From an uncultured bacterium (GTDB lineage Bacteria > Cyanobacteriota > Cyanobacteriia > CAZCXK01), in contig CAZCXK010000049.1 in assembly GCA_964502605.1 (NCBI GenBank), positions 1-24,790 of the forward strand: a stretch of DNA of 24,790 nucleotides, written 5' to 3'. The notes under the pieces are model-generated. The model was not told the DNA's origin and made no database searches. It saw only the letters and a list, made by a program, of their open reading frames with translations. Both the position numbers and the translations under genes were made by a program. This document shows, piece after piece, positions 1,589 to 18,674 of this stretch (within the stretch, counting starts at the first letter, position 1; every line of letters starts with the position of its first letter).

Positions 1589-2683
1589 CTAAGACGAGAC
1601 CCACTTTTCAAGGTACTTATCAACTTTAACCAAGAACTTATTGTGATTTTGGTATGGAATGATTTCGACCTTCTTTAGGCGGCCCACTAAAATACCAGGA
1701 TGTCGCCCCTGAGATTTTGCAAAATCTTCCACCCTTTTCGCCGAAAAATATGGAGAAGTTTTGTCAACAAAATTGTTTAAGGCTTGCGCATCTAGTAGCC
1801 AGTTTGCTGCTAGTTGATTAGCCTCGGTTTCTTCTTGATTAACTTCCAAGTCATCCATATTGTCTAAATAGCTGCCCTCGTGACCTGCCACAATATGGCC
1901 TAGTTCGTGCATTAGCGTAAACCAAAAATTATCAATTCGCTTATATCTCAACGTCAGCGCAACCACCGGCCTGCCTTCTATGTGAAATGCTGCCCCATCT
2001 AAGTAGGTCTTATCCAAATGGGGCACAATGGCAAAATGTACGCCAAGGCTAAGAAGTTTATCTGGTACTAAAGCCACATTCTCTGCCTGAGCCGATAAAG
2101 CCAGAATTTCAGGAATCGCTGCCTCCAGCTTGGCTTGGTCAAAGGCAGTGAGCTTTTGAGCTCGCACAACCCTTTCAACCTGTTTCATCCAGGCGATCTG
2201 AGCCTGAGTCTCTGGGGCTCGCTTTTCAGATTGCCGACAGTTAACTGCCAGCTTTGGGGGCTCCCCAATCTGATCAATCTCGAAAAAACTACAAACCTGT
2301 TGCTCAAGTTCATCAATCGAGTTAGCCGATTCAATCCATCCCCGCTTAATCATCTCTGCGACCGGGGCAAAGCTGTAGAGACGGCTTTTACGAGCAATTT
2401 CACTCATCTCTGATGGGTTCTTAGCTTTCTTCTGGGCCACATGCAGCCGATATTTTGCCTCTAAGTTTGTCCAAAACTCAGCAGAGGTGCCCAATGCTTC
2501 AGCTAACTCAATCGCCGTCTCAGGTGTAATTTGCTTGTTTCCTTTGACGATGCCATTGATGGTTTGGTGAGGTCGCCCCATAATCTCGGCCAAGTCTTTT
2601 TGAGTCCATCCCCTGGCTTCGAGTTCTCGGTTCAAAATTCTTCCAGGCGGTGAAACCCTTGCTGGTGCTAATGTCTGAGTCAT
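1589..2683 (-). CDS. higA: HigA-type HTH (XRE-family) antitoxin fused to an ImmA/IrrE-family (COG2856) Zn metallopeptidase domain
   Basis: The N-terminus (ILNRELEARGWTQKDLAEIMGRPHQTINGIVKGNKQITPETAIELAEALGTSAEFWTNLEAKY) matches the HigA / VapI addiction-module antidote helix-turn-helix. The C-terminal half carries HEXXH plus a downstream Glu (FTLMHELGHIVAGHEG...EETEANQLAANWLL), the ImmA/IrrE metallopeptidase signature. A strong ribosome-binding site (GGGAGGAGAGG) precedes the ATG, which lies 24 nt downstream of the higB stop codon. Confidence 0.8.
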   Translation of the reverse strand: MTQTLAPARVSPPGRILNRELEARGWTQKDLAEIMGRPHQTINGIVKGNKQITPETAIELAEALGTSAEFWTNLEAKYRLHVAQKKAKNPSEMSEIARKSRLYSFAPVAEMIKRGWIESANSIDELEQQVCSFFEIDQIGEPPKLAVNCRQSEKRAPETQAQIAWMKQVERVVRAQKLTAFDQAKLEAAIPEILALSAQAENVALVPDKLLSLGVHFAIVPHLDKTYLDGAAFHIEGRPVVALTLRYKRIDNFWFTLMHELGHIVAGHEGSYLDNMDDLEVNQEETEANQLAANWLLDAQALNNFVDKTSPYFSAKRVEDFAKSQGRHPGILVGRLKKVEIIPYQNHNKFLVKVDKYLEKWVSS

Positions 2684-2707
2684 GCCTCTCCTCCCTTAGT
2701 GCCTGAT

Positions 2708-2998
2708 TCAGTGATAGTCTTCAATAGCAATGATCAGTAGATATCCTCCCTCTTCATCCTTCTCAATGGCGACAATTAGCCGCCACTGTTTGTTTAATCG
2801 TAGAGACCGTTCTCTTGGTCGTCCTTTGAGCTTTTCAAAGTGAAAGCCTTTTAGGGCGTATAGATCACGCTCATCTCTAGCAGCGGCGATCGCGTTCATG
2901 GCGTCAAAGAAATCGTCTATGACGTTAGGGTACTTATGGGCATTTTTCTCCTCGGTATAAAGAGCTTCTAGCCTTTTCTGCTTGAATTTGAACCTCAA
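2708..2998 (-). CDS. higB: HigB toxin (RelE/ParE superfamily, plasmid-maintenance-system killer protein)
   Basis: The 96-aa protein shows the HigB killer-protein pattern (MRFKFKQKRLEALY...LKGFHFEKLKGRPRE.SLRLNKQWRLIVAIE...IIAIEDYH), including the C-terminal EDYH seen in Proteus-type HigB. It appears to use a TTG start codon with a GGGAGG ribosome-binding site 9 nt upstream. It lies directly upstream of higA in the toxin-first order typical of higBA. Confidence 0.8.
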   Translation of the reverse strand: MRFKFKQKRLEALYTEEKNAHKYPNVIDDFFDAMNAIAAARDERDLYALKGFHFEKLKGRPRERSLRLNKQWRLIVAIEKDEEGGYLLIIAIEDYH

Positions 2999-10519: not shown

Positions 10520-11593
10520 TCAATACTTAAAAGAGATGATTCTCGGTGCAGTAATGGCAAGACGATTAGCATAGTCCCAGGTCGCCGCTGGAGCGCTGTC
10601 GCCCCTCCAAGCGGCAGTCAACTGATCGGCAAGATGATTCAACGGTATGCCAGTTTTACCATTTTTATCGATTAATGCGGCTGAGGGGTTTTCCTCCTGA
10701 TTGTGGTGTGAGTGTTGCCAGTCAAGTGGTAGAGCGATCGCCCCGTGATGAGCTCCCAAGAGAGCACCGAGCAGGGCGCAGGCGCTTGAACTGATTGCAG
10801 CCCCTGATGCACGACTAAGAAGAAAAAGCAAGCGCCGCATGGCTACGTCAGGTTCGGCTGGAGTCCCTAAAAAGCCATAGAGTGCAGCCAAGCTTGAGCA
10901 AGTGGCTGGGAGAGCTAACGCATCATCTGAGACGGTTCCCCTGACAATTTGCCCCATGGCGGTCAAAGCCGAACCTTCAGAGTGCATTAGGGTTTGCAGG
11001 GCGATCAGCTGAGCCGTCCAGCCAGATGAGTCGGGTGCTGCTAATGAACTCTCAATTAAGTACTGCATCAGGCGATCAGGACGTTGCGGTTCACGTAACC
11101 CCCAGGCAAGTGCGTTGAGTATCGTCATAACAGCAGGGATGAGATGTTCAGATACCGACCAACTGGTAGCGAGGCGATAGACGGTATGACGCAAACTATC
11201 GAGATCGTCATGAAACACGATAGCCAGAGGCAGAGTGGCGATCGCCAGTTGCCCTGCATCAACATTAACAACAGCGGTCTGGGGCGCAATCTCTCTAAAG
11301 TAATTGAGTTCAGATGGGTCTTGCGATCGGCCTGACAGTAGCGCCTGGGGCAGCCCCTCCTCAAGTTGGGGCTCCTGAGACGCAACCGATTGCACATCCA
11401 GCCGCTGCACGTTGACCCGTCCCCATCGCCCCATGATGTAGCCATTAGTCAAGGTCAGAGCTGACGTGACCCACCAGGGCTGGCCGAGGCCAGACAGAGA
11501 AGTACCTCTCCACAGACCCTGGGTCGATCGCTCGATACTGCTTCCAATAGCCATGCCCAAGAGCAGGCCCCGGACGGGTTGAGAATTATACAT
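10520..11593 (-). CDS. ADP-ribosylglycohydrolase (ARH/DraG)-like protein, possibly catalytically degenerate
   Basis: The N-terminus GLLLGMAIGSSIE has the shape of the ARH G-rich motif (GxxLGxAxGDALG). The C-terminus SSSACALLGALLGAHHGAIALPLDW resembles the ARH motif DTDTxAAIAGALAGAYYG..IP..W. The conserved Asp/Thr metal ligands appear replaced by Ser. The gene is co-oriented with the 7TM-HD gene and 135 nt upstream of it. Confidence 0.5.
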   Translation of the reverse strand: MYNSQPVRGLLLGMAIGSSIERSTQGLWRGTSLSGLGQPWWVTSALTLTNGYIMGRWGRVNVQRLDVQSVASQEPQLEEGLPQALLSGRSQDPSELNYFREIAPQTAVVNVDAGQLAIATLPLAIVFHDDLDSLRHTVYRLATSWSVSEHLIPAVMTILNALAWGLREPQRPDRLMQYLIESSLAAPDSSGWTAQLIALQTLMHSEGSALTAMGQIVRGTVSDDALALPATCSSLAALYGFLGTPAEPDVAMRRLLFLLSRASGAAISSSACALLGALLGAHHGAIALPLDWQHSHHNQEENPSAALIDKNGKTGIPLNHLADQLTAAWRGDSAPAATWDYANRLAITAPRIISFKY

Positions 11594-11624: not shown

Positions 11625-11745
11625 CATCGGTGCTCACAGTATCGGCGCTCACAGTATCGGCGCTCACGGTATCGGCGCTCACGATATCGGCGTTCACGGT
11701 ATCGGCGTTCACGGTATCGGCGCTCACGGCATCGCCACGACAAGC
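11625..11745. repeat. 15-bp tandem repeat (GCTCACRGTATCGGC), about 8 units
   Basis: The array reads gctcacagtatcggc gctcacagtatcggc gctcacggtatcggc gctcacgatatcggc gttcacggtatcggc gttcacggtatcggc gctcacggcatcg. It lies 30-150 bp upstream of the ARH-like gene start on the minus strand. Confidence 0.9.
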
Positions 11746-12671
11746 CAATTCGTTTTAACTCAGGTAGAAGAGCCACCCGCATCATGAAAACTTGGGGCAA
11801 GACCGTCCTACTAAACTCTGGGCGTAGAAATATGTTGCTAAACGTAGAGCAATCATTACACTTCATCAATCATGATGAATTTTGGTAACTCAGGTGATGC
11901 CTCTCTGTGGGGTAATGCTAGCCTAACGGTAGGCACGCATAAGGTTAACGTTTTAGGTAAAACGACCTCAAAAAATAAGTTTTCTGGGTTCAAGCCTGTG
12001 CCTCCTGCTTGTAGCCAGCATGACACCTAAACCAATCGACGCGAGTCTCGTTTGATGGGTTATGTGTTTTAACCAGTCTTGTGAATTGAGCCGTCGAGGC
12101 TCTATCAACATCTAGGTTAAGCGCAATACCTCAGCTCTCTAGTCTCCTAAAGAGATTGAACCGTTGTCGAGGGTGGTGAGGGGCGTCGTGAGTTAGTTGT
12201 CCACCTGAGTTTAACGATTACTGAACTGAGCCTCAATTTATCTTCAACTGAGCAAGGTCAAGTTAAGCTAATTTTTTTGTAAGAGGTCTAGCCCTTGCTA
12301 GGCCTCGTTGTCGTTTTAGGGCATTTTTCAGACTGCATTGCGTTAGTGCTGTTCACAGCTCGGGTTCAACGCCGCTGGCTGCCAACCTAAAGCCTTTAGG
12401 CTAAGCCAGATAAATTTCCTTAACTTGTGAGTGAGGGTTTACTCCTTTTTTTCTTCACCTGGAACAACGCACCCACAGATCGGGTCTAAGTATGTAACAG
12501 CAACGTTTTGATTGATTTCGATTGCATCAGGTGCCTCTGCCTTCCTATGGGAAAGCGGGGCACCTTTTTGCATGGTTGAGGCTCGAGTCTAAAAATTGCT
12601 GTTGCCGTTCGGGTGCTCGGTCTGATTTCATCCAGTTTGCTCTTCCGTTGTAAATTAACGTGACCTAACGC

Positions 12672-15332
12672 ATGGATATTCTCGATTTTTCGGTTGCGAA
12701 CGACTGGGGCAGTGGCTTCACTGGCAGTCTGTCAATTACCAACCCAAACCCAACGGCTCTCAATCAATGGGTCGTTGAATTTGAAGCTCCATTTGAAATT
12801 ACAGACATTTGGAATGCTGAAATTATCAGTCGTGAGGGCAATCGTTATATCATTCGCAATGCCAATTGGAACGGGGCGATCGCCTCTGGTCAAACGGTTA
12901 CATTTGGCTTCAATGGCAAGAAAGCAACCGGGGTGACGCTAGAACCCCAAAATTATAAATTTAACGGAGTCGCGCTCGATCCTGGTCCTGCTCCCGCTGA
13001 GCCACCGTTTGCGCTGCTGCCTGAACTGGCGATCGCTGACACCAGCGTCGTTGAGGCTAACAATGCCCAAGCCAAGTTTGTGATTAACCTCTCAGAGCCC
13101 AGCACTCAGAACATCTCGGTCGAATATTCGACAAACTCACTCACTGCAAAGGCTGGTTCTGACTACCGCTCAAAGTCGGGCACGCTCACGTTTGCCCCTG
13201 GAGAAACGTCTAAAACAGTGTCAGTTGCCGTGTTAAATGACACCCTCGTTGAAAACTCAGAAACGTTTGAACTCAATCTAGCCCGAGCAAATAACGCAAC
13301 GATTGCCAGCGGCAAAGGAATTGCCACCATCTTGGACGACGATGAGGCCACGCCTACTCCTGCTCCCGCGCCTGTGCCTGCTCCCGCGCCTGCGCCTGCT
13401 CCCGCGCCTACCCCCGCGCCTGTGCCTGCTCCCGATTCAACATCTCCATCATCTGAGTCAAGCGTTGATTTTTCGGTTGCGAATAACTGGGGCAGTGGCT
13501 TTACGGCTAATCTATCGTTTACCAATGCTGGCAATGCAGCGCTCAACGGTTGGACGTTAGAATTTAGCGCTCCCTTTGAAATGACGAATATCTGGGGTGC
13601 TGAGCTAGTGCGTAAAGAGGGCGATCGCTATGTGATTAGTCCTGCTAGTTGGAATAGCTCTGTCGCCCCCGGACAAACGATTTCATTTGGCTTTAATGCC
13701 AACGGTGCCGCAACAGAACCAACGAGCTATGAACTCAACGGCTCTCCCCTATCTGCACCTCCATCTGCACCTCCAGCGGATAACCCTGAAGACGATCCGG
13801 CTCCATCTCCTCCCCCAGTGGCCGAGACGCCAGTAGACAACACCCCCGATAGCTCCAGTGAGCCGAATGAGCCCATTGATTCAGGTGAGCCAATCACTCC
13901 AGATGCGTCTGCTGACCCGCCCTCTCCTGACCCCACGGCTCCCGCGCCTGGGCCACAGTCTGGAGATTTTAATTATGGTGAAGCGCTGCAAAAGTCGCTG
14001 TTATTCATCGAAGCACAGCGGTCAGGGCCATTGCCTGACGACACGCGCATCGAATGGCGTGGGGATTCAGCCGTCAATGATGGCGCTGATGTGGGTCTTG
14101 ACCTGTCGGGTGGCTATTATGACGCGGGCGATCATGTCAAGTTTGGCTTCCCTATGGCATCATCCATGACCATGCTGAGTTGGGGCGTTGTGGAATATCG
14201 GGACGGGTATGCTCAAAGTGGTCAGCTTGATGAAGCCTTAGAGGCAATCAAGTGGGGCGCAGATTATATTCTCAAAGCACATGTGACCGATAGCCAGGGC
14301 ACGAAAGAGTTTTGGGGACAGGTCGGCAATGGCAACATTGACCATGCTTACTGGGGAACTGCCGAAACCATGACCATGGAGCGTCCCGCTTACAAGATTG
14401 ATCGGCAAAATCCAGGCTCAGATTTAGCGGCTGAGTCGGCGGCGGCTCTGGCCTCAGCCTCGATTGCCTTCAAAACAGCCGATCCAGACTACGCCGATCG
14501 ACTCTTGACCAACGCCAAACAGCTGTTTGAGTTTGCCGATCAATACCGAGGGAAATATTCCGACTCCATCACTGATGCGAGATCGTTTTACAACTCCTGG
14601 AGCGGCTATATTGACGAGTTAGTGTGGGGTGCGACATGGCTCTATAAAGCTACCGGCGAACAGAAATATCTGAACAAAGCCGAACAGCTCTATCAGGGGC
14701 TCAACCCTCAATGGACTCACAACTGGGACGACAAGTCTTATGGCGCTGCTGTGCTATTGGCTCAAGAAACCGGGAAGGCTCGCTATCGTAACGACGTTGA
14801 AGGCTGGCTCGACTATTGGTCAGATTCCAGCGGTGATGGGGTCAACTATACTTCTGGAGGTCTGGCATGGCTGAGCCAGTGGGGATCACTTCGCTATAGT
14901 TCTACAACGGCGTTTATCGCGGGTGTTTATAGCGACACGGTCAACGATAAGGGCGATCGCTACTCCAATTTTGCCGAAAACCAAATCGACTACATTCTGG
15001 GTGAAAATCCTAATAACCTTAGCTACATGGTTGGGTTTGGCGACAGCTACCCACTCAACCCCCACCATCGCAACGCCCACGGAGGCGGCAGCATTAATGA
15101 TCCGGCACCCAATGACAACATTCTCTTTGGGGCTCTAGTCGGTGGCCCTGCATCACCCAACGACAATGACTATGCTGACGTGCGCTCCGACTATATTCGC
15201 AATGAAGTCGCACTTGACTACAATGCTGGATTTACCGGGGCTTTGGCTCGTATGTATGACATGTTTGGTGGCCAACCTCTCAGTGATGCTCAACTCAATG
15301 CGTTACCTGGGATCGTTGTAGCTGATGCCTGA
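12672..15332 (+). CDS. Multi-domain glycoside hydrolase family 9 endoglucanase (cellulase): CBM2 - Calx-beta - Pro/Ala linker - CBM2 - Pro-rich linker - GH9 catalytic domain
   Basis: GH9 catalytic motifs are present (DLSGGYYDAGDHVKFGFPMA, HHRNAHGG, ALVGGP, RSDYIRNEVALDYNAGFTGALA). Two paralogous CBM2-like modules occur (DFSVANDWGSGFTGSLSITN...WNAEI...WNGAIASGQTVTFGFNG and the copy at about 13440-13700). A Calx-beta module is present (VEYSTNSLTAKAGSDYRSKSGTLTFAPGETSKTVSVAVLNDTLVENSETFELNL), and the linkers include (PAPAPV)n. An in-frame TAA lies 2 codons upstream of the ATG, so the protein has no N-terminal signal peptide. Confidence 0.9.
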   Translation: MDILDFSVANDWGSGFTGSLSITNPNPTALNQWVVEFEAPFEITDIWNAEIISREGNRYIIRNANWNGAIASGQTVTFGFNGKKATGVTLEPQNYKFNGVALDPGPAPAEPPFALLPELAIADTSVVEANNAQAKFVINLSEPSTQNISVEYSTNSLTAKAGSDYRSKSGTLTFAPGETSKTVSVAVLNDTLVENSETFELNLARANNATIASGKGIATILDDDEATPTPAPAPVPAPAPAPAPAPTPAPVPAPDSTSPSSESSVDFSVANNWGSGFTANLSFTNAGNAALNGWTLEFSAPFEMTNIWGAELVRKEGDRYVISPASWNSSVAPGQTISFGFNANGAATEPTSYELNGSPLSAPPSAPPADNPEDDPAPSPPPVAETPVDNTPDSSSEPNEPIDSGEPITPDASADPPSPDPTAPAPGPQSGDFNYGEALQKSLLFIEAQRSGPLPDDTRIEWRGDSAVNDGADVGLDLSGGYYDAGDHVKFGFPMASSMTMLSWGVVEYRDGYAQSGQLDEALEAIKWGADYILKAHVTDSQGTKEFWGQVGNGNIDHAYWGTAETMTMERPAYKIDRQNPGSDLAAESAAALASASIAFKTADPDYADRLLTNAKQLFEFADQYRGKYSDSITDARSFYNSWSGYIDELVWGATWLYKATGEQKYLNKAEQLYQGLNPQWTHNWDDKSYGAAVLLAQETGKARYRNDVEGWLDYWSDSSGDGVNYTSGGLAWLSQWGSLRYSSTTAFIAGVYSDTVNDKGDRYSNFAENQIDYILGENPNNLSYMVGFGDSYPLNPHHRNAHGGGSINDPAPNDNILFGALVGGPASPNDNDYADVRSDYIRNEVALDYNAGFTGALARMYDMFGGQPLSDAQLNALPGIVVADA

Positions 15333-15386
15333 TGCCTGATGTATAGGTTGAGATCAACTGTGGCATGAGTGTGAATTAATACAAAA

Positions 15387-15417
15387 CCCTGGAATTTTAG
15401 GATTCCGGGGTTTTTTT
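15387..15417. terminator. Rho-independent terminator, probably bidirectional
   Basis: aaaaCCCTGGAATtttaggATTCCGGGGttttttt forms a 9-bp stem with one G-U pair and a 6-nt loop. An A-run lies upstream and a T7 run downstream, so it can terminate both the GH9 transcript (+) and the convergent small ORF (-). Confidence 0.75.
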
Positions 15418-15624: not shown

Positions 15625-16460
15625 AGTGGGTGTCCTCCTGGGCTGCATTGATAGTCAGCGTTTAATTAGAGCAGTGTTTGATCAGAGCAACGACAGAATT
15701 AGTTGGGCAAATGACTTAATTTAAGCTGGCGTCTCTAATCTAACGCCTTGAAACGAACATCTTGATACCGTCTCATTTCCTTCTAAATTGTACTCAGGCT
15801 TAACCGTCAGCCAAGACACTACATTACATTGCTAGATTTTCTTAAGTTTCTGCAAATCTAACGTGCTAAGTTGCACAGTATCCCGCCTCATCCGTGGAAT
15901 CACATGGGAGAGCAGAAATTGAAAAGGCCGAAATATTGTATCCTCTGGACATTTTTATCACTCCTTTAATTTCTGCCGATATCTCTTTACACCCAAACCC
16001 TATTGTTTGCAGTTGAATAGAGATGAGGAGGTAGAAGTTATACTGAAACGTTTGAAATTGAGTGACCTCTCACATCCGTAAAAGTACTGTAACTGCTAAT
16101 TGGACAAATGCTATTGTGAATGGTTCTGACACGGCTCAACAGAGGAATTTATCATCGAACCATTCTTCTAATGTTGGTGCAAGTTTTATTTAGACTCAAT
16201 TGCAGCTTGCAACTATACCCAGCCCAGATCTTAATTGGGAGATATCCCATAGGTAGGGCTCCACTTCTAGACCTAGATACGGTTTAGTTGGTTGAATTAT
16301 CAGTTCAGAATGGGTGCATAAGTCATAAGGTTTTCAGGCGCGATCGCCATCTGATGGGCGATCGCCTGTTTGATGGTGGCAATTTCCAGGAGAATCTACC
16401 ACGCATTGTCTACCCATCTCTTTTAATAGTTCTGACAATAGTTCTGAGGTAATTGATTTC

Positions 16461-18674
16461 ATGGGCGAAAAGCTTGATTTTGTCGAGGTCAAATTAGATG
16501 GCGTTGGTGGTGTTGATGGTCTGGATGGTGCCTATAGCATTAGCATCAGTCCCGATGGCAAACATGTTTATGTGGCCGGAGATATTGATAATAAAGTTGC
16601 CGTATTCTCGCGCAATTTAGTAGACGGCACCCTTACCTTTGTCGAGGCTCTGGCCCACGGTGGTGATCCCAAGACCAGCCAGCCTCAGTTTGCTGGTGAC
16701 ACTGTTAGCGTTAGTCCAGACGGTGAGTTTGTCTATGCAACTAGCTTTTCGACTGATACCGTCACGGTGTTTGCTCGTAATGCAACTACCGGGGCACTGA
16801 CTCAGACTCAGGTGATTGCTGATTCTGGAGCCATCTCAAATTCTCTGCATGGCGTGTCTGGCATCCAAGTTAGCCCTGATGGCGAGTTTGCCTATGCTAC
16901 GGGCTATTTCAGTGATGCGATCGCCGTTTTTTCGCGCAACCCTACAACGGGCGCACTGACGTTTGTTCAACAGCAGAAGGATAATACCGCTGGTGTAGAC
17001 GGGTTAGACGGTGCTAGCAGCATCACCCTCAGCCCCGACGGAAAGTTTGTCTATGCCACAGGTGATAACGACAATGCGATCGCCGTTTTTTCGCGCAACG
17101 CAACGACCGGCTTGCTCACCTTTGTCGAGTTTCAAAAAGATAGTGTGGGCGGGGTTGATGGCCTCAGAGACGCCAGGAGCCTCAGCCTCAGCCCTGATGG
17201 CAAATTTGTTTATGCCGTGGGAGAAGGTGACGATGGCATTGCCGTATTTTCCCGGAATGCAACTACGGGTAGGCTCACCTTTGTTGAAGCTGTGAAAGAT
17301 GGTGTCAGCGGGGTCGATGGCCTTGATGGTGTCTATAATATCAACATCAGCTTAGACGGCAAGTTTGTCTATGCTGCAGGTAATAATGAAGACGCGATCG
17401 TCATGTTTTCGAGAAACACGACGACCGGGAAACTCACCTTTGTGAGAGTCCGCAAAAACAACGTGGATGGAGTCACAGGGCTAGATGGTGTGACCAACAT
17501 TCAAATTAGCCCCGATGGCAAGTTTTTCTATGCATCAGGCTACAACGACGACGCCATTTCGGTATTCTCAACCTTGGGCACCAATGCTCTACCGACATCT
17601 ACCAACGGCACGGTCACAGGTCTAGAAGATGCAATCTATCAGTTCAAGACGTCTGACTTTGCCTTTACTGATGCTGATGAGGGAGATACTTTTCAAACCC
17701 TAGAAATCACATCGCTAGAAACGGCGGGTAGTCTTTTCTTTGACGCTAACAACAATAATATTGAGAACTCTGGTGAAGCGGTCAGCCTCGGCCAAGTTAT
17801 TGCGGCTGCCAATCTCACCAACTTAAAATTTCGCCCGGTAGCCAATGCCTTTGGTAGCCCCTACGCCACCTTTGGATTCAAAGTTGGAGATGGGATTGAT
17901 TCTAGTGCTAGTGCCTACACGATGACGATCAACATTCTGGATCAGCCTGAACCCAGCCCCGGCGGTAGTGGTGGTAGTGGTGGCAGTAGTGGCAGCGGCA
18001 CTGGGCCACTCCAGTTTGGCGTGGCTCCTGACCCCATCAATTTCAGAGGGGGCAAGCGCGGTGCAAGATTAAAAGGGACAGGACGGGCAGATACGCTGCG
18101 CGGCACCAAAGCCAATGACACGCTGTTAGGTAAAGGCGGGGGCGATCGCCTGATTGCCAAGGGCGGTAAAGATATTGTCAAAGGTGGCGGCGGCAGTGAT
18201 TTGATCAAGGGTGGCGGTGGCAACGATCGCCTCTCTGGACAAGCGGGTAATGATACGATCAGTGGTGGTGGCGGGGATGATTTGCTGCAAGGAGGTGGTG
18301 GCAACGATCGCCTCAGAGGGGGCGGTGGTAACGATGTTTTAGTTGGTCAGAGAGGCGCTGACACTCTAATTGGCGGCGGTGGTGCCGATTTGTATGTTTT
18401 CAACAGCGTGGCCGATGGCATGGATACGATCATTGGCTTCCAAGTGGGGCAAGACCTGATCGACATCCGCTCAATTTTTGCCCAAAGTGCCTTTGCAGCA
18501 CCATCGCGCACTGCTCAGTTTCGACAGTTTGTCAAGATCGAACAGTTGGGTGTTAATACGGTGATTAGCCTCGACCAAGATGGCACTGGAGCGGGTACGG
18601 TGTTTCAACCCCTAGCCACATTGACCAATATTGCGGCGAGCACGGTGCAATCAACTAGCTTCGTAGTGGCCTGA
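16461..18674 (+). CDS. Beta-propeller (lactonase-type 7-bladed repeats) protein with a cadherin/Ig-like module and C-terminal RTX calcium-binding nonapeptide repeats (probable type I secretion substrate)
   Basis: There are at least 7 repeats of the type SPDGKFVYA.G..D.AIAVFSRN.TTG.LTFV. A Gly/Ser linker (GGSGGSGGSSGSG) follows. RTX GGxGxDxL repeats then appear (GGGGSDLIKGGGGNDRLSGQAGNDTISGGGGDDLLQGGGGNDRLRGGGGNDVL...), with an acidic/hydrophobic C-terminus and no N-terminal signal peptide. Confidence 0.85.
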   Translation: MGEKLDFVEVKLDGVGGVDGLDGAYSISISPDGKHVYVAGDIDNKVAVFSRNLVDGTLTFVEALAHGGDPKTSQPQFAGDTVSVSPDGEFVYATSFSTDTVTVFARNATTGALTQTQVIADSGAISNSLHGVSGIQVSPDGEFAYATGYFSDAIAVFSRNPTTGALTFVQQQKDNTAGVDGLDGASSITLSPDGKFVYATGDNDNAIAVFSRNATTGLLTFVEFQKDSVGGVDGLRDARSLSLSPDGKFVYAVGEGDDGIAVFSRNATTGRLTFVEAVKDGVSGVDGLDGVYNINISLDGKFVYAAGNNEDAIVMFSRNTTTGKLTFVRVRKNNVDGVTGLDGVTNIQISPDGKFFYASGYNDDAISVFSTLGTNALPTSTNGTVTGLEDAIYQFKTSDFAFTDADEGDTFQTLEITSLETAGSLFFDANNNNIENSGEAVSLGQVIAAANLTNLKFRPVANAFGSPYATFGFKVGDGIDSSASAYTMTINILDQPEPSPGGSGGSGGSSGSGTGPLQFGVAPDPINFRGGKRGARLKGTGRADTLRGTKANDTLLGKGGGDRLIAKGGKDIVKGGGGSDLIKGGGGNDRLSGQAGNDTISGGGGDDLLQGGGGNDRLRGGGGNDVLVGQRGADTLIGGGGADLYVFNSVADGMDTIIGFQVGQDLIDIRSIFAQSAFAAPSRTAQFRQFVKIEQLGVNTVISLDQDGTGAGTVFQPLATLTNIAASTVQSTSFVVA

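Follow-up and report, generated by a model that had tools for sequence, protein, structure and literature searches.

A conserved leaderless GH9 cellulase family of cyanobacteria and its probable signal-peptide-independent exit from the cell

Introduction

How could a cellulase leave a cyanobacterial cell when its gene encodes no signal peptide? The question is raised by an open reading frame (ORF) at positions 12672..15332 (+) of a 24,790-nucleotide stretch of DNA from an uncultured cyanobacterium (contig CAZCXK010000049.1; the whole analysed stretch is called the window below). The ORF encodes a multi-modular protein of glycoside hydrolase family 9 (GH9), with two family 2 carbohydrate-binding modules (CBM2) and a Calx-beta module ahead of the catalytic domain. 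An earlier note on this DNA, made from the letters alone, had described the product as a leaderless cellulase with a recently duplicated CBM2, and had offered two accounts of the missing leader, namely a non-classical export route or a start mis-set by a frameshift. Given the absent leader, non-classical export is the right question, and the protein probably exits the cell independently of a signal peptide. For this window our results chiefly correct the earlier picture, showing an intact gene with the right start codon and an internal duplication that is old.

The wider interest lies in the organisms. Protein secretion in cyanobacteria is poorly mapped, and many of their exoproteins carry no recognisable signal, which limits both the understanding of their physiology and their use as secretion hosts. 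The family described here is a clean test case for signal-peptide-independent export, with more than 100 leaderless members, a short C-terminal tail and an assayable activity.

Domain architecture and predicted activity

The ORF is intact and complete, encoding 886 aa followed by a stop codon. The same protein (P0001) has been called independently in public data, and an independent assembly carries an identical gene. The features of the locus are as follows, with the evidence for each in brackets.

12666..12668 (+): in-frame TAA stop, two codons before the ATG (sequence, three-frame translation)
12672..15332 (+): complete ORF of a predicted multi-modular GH9 endoglucanase (ORF list, Pfam, composition, public P0001)
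12672..12983 (+): CBM2 copy 1, aa 1-104, beginning at the initiator Met (Pfam, alignment to Cex 1exg and ChiC 2rtt, AlphaFold2)
13026..13349 (+): Calx-beta, aa 119-226 (Pfam, alignments to NCX1 CBD1/CBD2 and CALX, predicted local distance difference test score, pLDDT, >90)
13350..13451 (+): Pro/Ala/Thr/Val linker, aa 227-260 (imperfect 6/18-nt tandem repeat, 70% GC)
13452..13757 (+): CBM2 copy 2, aa 261-362 (Pfam, module alignments)
13758..13967 (+): acidic Pro/Ser/Asp/Glu-rich linker, aa 363-432 (translation, pLDDT <50)
13968..15266 (+): GH9 (alpha/alpha)6 catalytic domain, aa 433-865 (Pfam, 1js4 alignment)
14121-14123, 14130-14132 and 15204-15206 (+): codons of the catalytic residues Asp484, Asp487 and Glu845 (alignment to E4)
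15267..15329 (+): C-terminal tail GGQPLSDAQLNALPGIVVADA, aa 866-886, a candidate uncleaved secretion signal (free of Lys and Arg, hydrophobic end)
15383..15414 (+): intrinsic terminator, 14-bp stem followed by a T-run (fold -18.7 kcal/mol, z -4.3)

Module limits were set from a phmmer scan together with a structure model, which was built with AlphaFold2 (AF2) on 50 family members and reached a mean pLDDT of 82.5. From the N-terminus the order is CBM2, Calx-beta, Pro/Thr linker, CBM2, acidic linker, GH9 and a 21-aa tail. The model is confident for the four domains and disordered in both linkers (pLDDT <50 at residues 230-260 and 367-430). Pfam bore out the earlier reading of the domains as GH9, two CBM2 and Calx-beta; a weak match to CBM49 merely overlaps CBM2 copy 2. 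The 886-aa protein contains 0 Cys and has a pI of 4.18.

The catalytic domain matches Glyco_hydro_9 (PF00759) over the full profile, positions 1-444 of 444, with an E-value of 4.3e-156 and a score of 521 bits, the cut-off being 27.7. Matches at E <1e-85 were obtained with eighteen solved GH9 structures, the best being 8u49 (E 6.9e-160) and Thermobifida fusca E4, 1js4 (E 2.8e-159), both at about 535 bits in an end-to-end alignment. Residues D55, D58 and E424 of E4 align with D484, D487 and E845, which form the base pair of the DAGD motif and the acid of the NEVA motif, and none of the three varies among 50 aligned relatives. The domain is helical in the AF2 model, with pLDDT mostly >90. The loss of the catalytic Asp and Glu residues had been named in the earlier note as an observation that could overturn the cellulase assignment; all three are present on alignment and invariant in the family, and the assignment therefore holds. 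These results indicate that the ORF product is a native, intact cyanobacterial endo-beta-1,4-glucanase, predicted to be active.

The two CBM2 copies are recognised by CBM_2 (PF00553) with a whole-protein E-value of 7e-46 and 155 bits. Residues W12, W47 and W66 align with the surface tryptophans W17, W54 and W72 of Cex; W12, G15, F16 and W47 are invariant in the family, and W66 is at least 90% conserved. By alignment both copies are assigned to the flat-face 'a' type (CBM2a). In classical actinobacterial CBM2 modules, conserved N- and C-terminal cysteines form the module disulfide. These usual cysteines are absent here, so that the module is a disulfide-free variant. The Calx-beta module matches PF03160 (E 7.8e-18, 65 bits against a cut-off of 27), and its acidic residues (..NDtlvENsEtF.. 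and ..ILDDDE) align with the DD..EE.E and DDD motifs of NCX1 and CALX; we regard it as a putative Ca-binding spacer. The catalytic residues and the CBM2a face together indicate crystalline beta-1,4-glucan as the predicted substrate.

The leaderless start is conserved in the family

The absence of a Sec or Tat leader, claimed in the earlier note, is evident from the first residues of the protein, and the in-frame stop that the note placed two codons upstream of the ATG is present as TAA at 12666-12668. Residues 1-30 contain no Lys or Arg, three Asp/Glu and no hydrophobic core; the maximum 9-residue hydropathy in this segment is 1.24, at the Met itself, and the first CBM2 strand of the AF2 model begins at residue 3. 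Three-frame translation of the 770 nt upstream gave no signal-like ORF, all frames being stop-rich.

Relatives were collected by a protein search of 5.8 billion sequences, which returned 488 at E up to 1e-10; family counts here and below use the best 120. These best 120 of the 488 come mostly from filamentous or mat-forming cyanobacteria, the source taxa being Coleofasciculus, Leptolyngbyaceae, Lyngbya, Symploca, Microcoleus, metagenome-assembled genomes of Nostocaceae, and Synechococcus PCC 6312. The first CBM2 Trp lies at residue 10-17 in 109 of the 120 homologues, and 95 of these have no Lys or Arg ahead of it. At the DNA level, the nearest in-frame stop was found 1-14 codons before the ATG, usually 2-3, in 11/11 cyanobacterial loci from different genera. 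A homologue from Prosthecobacter carries a classic Sec leader, MIKHRILFLLAWALTSALGVAQ, ahead of its CBM2, and its existence makes the leaderless contrast in the cyanobacteria meaningful.

The upstream stops in the 11 loci and the direct CBM2 starts in the 109 homologues therefore exclude the frameshifted or mis-set start that the earlier note had entertained. It is true that the 1.08-kb gene-free region upstream of the cellulase could in principle hide coding sequence. Since the frames there are stop-rich and the gene is identical in the independent assembly, and since the family evidence points the same way, it is extremely improbable that an upstream exon, a frameshift or an assembly error conceals a normal Sec/Tat signal. 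The cyanobacterial family as a whole conserves the missing leader, which is no annotation error and is most likely an ancestral trait of that family.

Four homologues of planctomycete type (P0016, P0048, P0108 and P0120) are built differently at both ends. Their N-termini bear Arg-rich extensions of 40-80 aa, three of the four with a motif like LEDRLVPA, LEDRFLL or LEGRLV and without a hydrophobic core. In all four, about 400 further residues follow GH9, and an extra Calx-beta and CBM2 stand after the catalytic domain. One enzyme family is thereby found with three N-terminal solutions in three phyla (L005, from 4565, among the entries).

Family composition and the C-terminal tail

Cysteine is absent from 112 of the 120 homologues, which are proteins of 700-1500 residues, and family members have a pI of 4-5. 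By comparison, 0.1-1.8% Cys was counted in eight of the nine other window ORFs that were examined. Both ends of the layout are constant in the family: CBM2 begins at residue 1-8, and the C-terminus is formed by GH9 and a short tail. The middle is variable, with 0-9 Calx-beta modules and with or without a second CBM2. In 100 of the 109 leaderless members, GH9 with a tail of at most 50 aa stands at the extreme C-terminus. One homologue, P0081, has another N-terminal module instead of CBM2 and is still leaderless; this makes it improbable that CBM2 itself is the signal. When residues 1-226, the CBM2-Calx cassette, served as the query, the matches were mostly short, partial fragments and proteins with Calx-beta repeats.

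Beyond the GH9 barrel, the tail measures 26 aa at the median, and its Lys plus Arg content is 0.5%, compared with 5% in the whole proteins. Tails are rich in Leu, Ser, Thr, Ala and Val, typically with a hydrophobic end, and the motif PL[ST]D.QL[ND].LPGI.V recurs in several genera. In the AF2 model of the present protein the tail contains a short helix at 872-877. The interdomain linkers are hypervariable but the tail motif is conserved across genera, which points to selection on the tail.

The protein is unremarkable within its family, which is a known kind of enzyme in a variant that is widespread yet uncharacterised. Databases already label family members as 'glycoside hydrolase family 9 protein', and a literature search found no paper describing this GH9 family or its missing leader.

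Proposed export route and alternatives

The reading that we favour as a whole, and to which we give about an even chance, is that of a leaderless cyanobacterial endoglucanase exported in one step, via its tail, by a TolC-dependent type I secretion system (T1SS), and cutting glucan outside the cell. The T1SS would read the C-terminal tail, free of Lys and Arg, as its signal. Folding outside the cell would be aided by Ca2+ bound to the Calx-beta and GH9 domains, and the folded enzyme would then cut a cellulose-like glucan, either in the sheath or matrix of the cell itself or in the mat around it. Substrates of T1SS are acidic proteins, many of them without cysteine, and cyanobacteria have RTX proteins in great abundance (PMC3034196). 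Judged by the traits given in the same source, the protein is T1SS-like in having no N-terminal signal, an acidic pI and no Cys (PMC3034196). As a candidate C-terminal signal it has a conserved tail of about 20 aa that lacks Lys and Arg and closes with hydrophobic residues; this is shorter than the canonical signal of about 60 residues usual in RTX proteins (PMC3034196).

Substantial evidence weighs against this proposal. The RTX nonapeptide is missing from the cellulase, in which the GGxGxD count is 0 and HemolysinCabind has no match; PlyA and PlyB are, however, non-RTX substrates of T1SS (PMC3034196), so that the absence of RTX lowers the case for classical RTX membership and not that for a T1SS mechanism. 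No T1SS C-terminal target domain was found in the cellulase with NCBIfam at E up to 1, and no genes for an ABC transporter, a membrane fusion protein or TolC were found in the 24.8-kb window, nor within 8-10 kb in seven other genomes. The tail has a third of the canonical signal length, and the signal would need to include the last helix of the folded (alpha/alpha)6 barrel. At the other end, the N-terminal CBM2 is a beta-sandwich able to fold on its own, and it could do so in the cytoplasm ahead of a C-terminus-first export. The N-extended homologues of planctomycete type are also almost Cys-free, and the loss of Cys may be inherited rather than route-specific; these four homologues are probably one clade and count as roughly a single observation. 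The extracellular placement of family members is itself read from sequence traits. As to the substrate, the best solved-structure matches of CBM2 copy 1 are chitinase CBMs, and CBM2a modules also bind chitin, so the CBM2 modules of this protein may bind chitin as well.

Two other accounts of the missing leader have to be set beside T1SS export. The enzyme might have no dedicated export at all, being a cytoplasmic protein that reaches its substrate through lysis, necridia or outer-membrane vesicles. Many leaderless proteins are present in cyanobacterial exoproteomes, and vesicles or unknown routes have been invoked for them (PMC4390845). Regular cell death in dense mats or sheathed trichomes could suffice, and the account agrees with the findings that there is no recognised signal of any kind in the protein and that no secretion genes lie near its gene. 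We nevertheless consider it unlikely, in view of the family-wide loss of Cys and the presence of Pro/Thr linkers, Calx-beta and CBM2, which are hallmarks of extracellular proteins, and of a tail motif conserved across genera while the interdomain linkers are hypervariable, which suggests selection on the tail. The enzyme might instead use an undescribed dedicated pathway that reads another feature of the protein, for example a cyanobacterial ABC exporter that has nothing to do with classical T1SS signals, or a holin-like system; a holin-like system serves the chitinases of Serratia. Such a pathway would accommodate the joint absence of RTX repeats, a 60-aa signal and linked transporter genes, as well as the fixed position of both protein ends (CBM2 at residue 1-8, GH9 at the C-terminus). 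No candidate machinery lies near the gene in 8 loci, however, the leaderless P0081 with its swapped N-terminal module speaks against an N-terminal determinant, and the composition fits the known profile of T1SS substrates. We consider this pathway unlikely as well.

Returning to T1SS export via the tail, we tentatively suggest that the family may represent a class of RTX-less one-step substrates spread across the cyanobacteria. In such a class the Calx-beta modules (0-9) would stand in for the RTX repeats, acting outside the cell both as a Ca2+-driven folding ratchet and as a rigid spacer. The tail of about 20 residues without Lys or Arg, placed right behind the catalytic barrel, would be the whole export signal, and the secreted cellulase would serve sheathed, mat-forming cyanobacteria in sheath turnover or the mixotrophic use of matrix glucan.

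The CBM2 duplication is old

A recent internal duplication had been proposed in the earlier note from a DNA identity of about 80% between the two CBM2 modules. This level of identity applies to one 59-nt stretch, which is 83% identical to 13467-13525, but not to the whole modules, which share only 66% identity in DNA and 54% in protein; the first of the two 59-mers, moreover, starts at 12684 and not at 12694. The stretch encodes the most conserved CBM2 motif (DFSVANDWGSGFT..LS.TN) and is 78-80% identical between this gene and orthologues of other genera. Codon identity at identical residues is not raised within it, at 9/15 compared with 20/36 in the rest of the module.

In a nearest-neighbour comparison of 133 distinct CBM2 modules, copy 1 had its closest counterpart in the first CBM2 copy of the Leptolyngbyaceae orthologue P0004 (68%), and copy 2 was also nearer to that module (61%) than to its own partner (53.5%). 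Two-CBM2 layouts were found in many lineages, and the CBM2-Calx-CBM2-GH9 layout is common to other lineages. The repetitive nature of the first linker was correctly noted before: it is a genuine 6/18-nt tandem repeat, at 13351-13434. No sign of recent conversion driven by this repeat was seen. The internal duplication is old. A recent duplication, or homogenisation of the modules by gene conversion via the repetitive linkers, could appeal to the 83% stretch and to the repetitive Pro/Thr linker between the copies; set against the divergence of the modules as a whole, their closer relatives in another genome, the wide occurrence of the layout, and the cross-genus conservation of the 59-nt motif without elevated synonymous-codon identity, it is very improbable.

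Genomic context

The cyanobacterial origin assumed in the earlier note is confirmed by the frequency of the HIP1 site, GCGATCGC, which occurs 46 times in the window against 0.63 expected and marks the DNA as part of a cyanobacterial chromosome. Four HIP1 sites lie inside the cellulase gene, whose GC content and third-position GC content (GC3) equal those of its neighbours. Because GC, GC3 and HIP1 content match the host, the gene is a resident one and recent transfer is unlikely; recent horizontal transfer was rejected on these grounds.

Linkage was examined by Pfam analysis of 10 neighbouring ORFs, a terminator scan with folding, and inspection of the gene context in seven other genomes. The gene is monocistronic, with the terminator at 15383-15414 placed 50 nt after the stop codon, and in all 8 loci examined the GH9 gene is solitary in unrelated surroundings. 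An operon with the RTX neighbour described below or with T1SS genes was considered and rejected, given the terminator and a 1.1-kb gap, and with no linkage or conserved synteny in the seven other genomes.

A neighbouring type I secretion substrate gene had been mentioned in the earlier note, and RTX repeats were indeed found in the product of the gene downstream of the cellulase. The gene in question (16461-18674, +) encodes a 737-aa leaderless protein with a lactonase-type 7-bladed beta-propeller and C-terminal RTX repeats. It has 0 Cys and a pI of 4.4, ends in ...STSFVVA, and resembles a typical T1SS substrate; it is transcriptionally apart from the cellulase, and no functional link between the two genes was seen. 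The two proteins share a composition profile and a similar C-terminal ending. Just upstream of the RTX gene, two HIP1 copies make a hairpin stem at 16340-16365.

The 1.08-kb gap on the other side of the cellulase contains a 15-nt tandem repeat, ATCGGCGCTCACGGT, at 11626-11734 (7.3 copies, 92% matches), which yields spurious repeat-peptide ORFs on both strands. Terminator-like hairpins are present upstream of the cellulase at 12283-12306 and 12529-12570 (+). The latter (-27.8 kcal/mol, z -2.6) is followed by UUUUU, lies about 100 nt before the ATG and has no Rfam match; it could terminate a short transcript from further upstream or serve as an attenuator in the leader. Scanning the full window against Rfam at E up to 1 gave no known RNA element, riboswitches (e.g. 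for cyclic di-GMP) included.

Beyond the gap, a divergent 357-aa ORF (10520-11593, -) has no Pfam or NCBIfam match; the public assembly likewise predicts a gene there. Other genes of the window encode Band-7, helix-turn-helix (HTH)/M78, Ser/Thr kinase-WD40, FKBP, a 7TM-HD receptor, squalene-hopene cyclase and ClpB. The HTH/Peptidase_M78 (IrrE-like) gene at 1589-2998 (-) adjoins a HigB-like toxin gene, at about 2708-2998 in the public assembly, and the two are likely a toxin-antitoxin or immunity-repressor pair. Among the other GH9 loci, L015 (11136-12642) and L016 (10878-12389) share a pair of unknown genes (~226 aa, +; ~266 aa, -) directly downstream of the GH9 gene, and L016 also has a gene for GH8, the BcsZ-like family, about 7 kb downstream (17296-18304). 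Neither this pair nor the GH8 gene is present in the window.

Possible role

Remodelling of the organism's own sheath or cellulose, as suggested in the earlier note, is plausible, and the enzyme may serve either sheath turnover or the scavenging of matrix glucan. The family members come from sheathed, mat-forming cyanobacteria. GH9 is among the glycoside hydrolases unique to the Coleofasciculus bin in a mat metagenome (10.1101/151704), mat cyanobacteria re-use extracellular organic carbon (PMC5029224), and a CBM2-bearing protein occurs in a cyanobacterial biofilm exoproteome (PMC4937211). One cyanobacterial glycosyl hydrolase is also mentioned in an exoproteome study of Elkhorn Slough. The family bears on two questions, why photoautotrophs with cellulose-containing sheaths carry true cellulases, and whether mat cyanobacteria re-use extracellular glucan.

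Comparison with known systems

In its catalytic domain the protein resembles T. fusca Cel9A (E4) and the 'theme B' GH9 enzymes (1js4, 8u49). The GH9 domain aligns end to end (E ~1e-159) and has the same Asp-Asp base and Glu acid, and the 'GGxPL.D' segment that leaves the barrel is kept, although only those first residues of the post-catalytic segment are retained. Cel9A carries a CBM2; E4 is Sec-secreted, with a CBM3c fused to its catalytic domain and the CBM2 at its C-terminal end. In contrast, the present protein has neither a leader nor a CBM3c, places CBM2 at residue 1 without the disulfide cysteines, carries Calx-beta in mid-protein and ends about 20 aa after the barrel. The leaderless start, the lack of Cys, the leading CBM2 and the Calx-beta spacers also set it apart from characterised GH9 cellulases in general.

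As a predicted endoglucanase, it may be compared with BcsZ (GH8), plant KORRIGAN (GH9) and cyanobacterial XcsC, the endoglucanases of cellulose producers that edit nascent glucan (PMC12430437). The idea that the organism remodels its own sheath is modelled on these enzymes. KORRIGAN spans the membrane (PMC12430437), whereas the present protein has no transmembrane segment or leader and is multi-modular with CBM2; XcsC homologues are linked to cellulose synthase (PMC12430437), and the present gene is not. As a leaderless cyanobacterial protein, it stands beside HesF (Alr0267) of Anabaena sp. PCC 7120, an adhesion-factor exoprotein of a different family, with which the comparison is one of function only. 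HesF has no detectable signal peptide, and its secretion depends on the TolC-like protein HgdD (PMC4390845), so that TolC-dependent export of a leaderless protein has a precedent in this phylum.

The leaderless glycanases secreted by T1SS (PMC3034196) differ from it in catalytic fold and repeat type, which are unrelated, and in that their dependence on T1SS has been shown genetically, while for the present protein we infer it; nor are PrsDE-like genes linked to the present gene. They nevertheless provide the closest functional analogy, for they too lack canonical RTX repeats and act on the exopolysaccharide of the producing cell itself.

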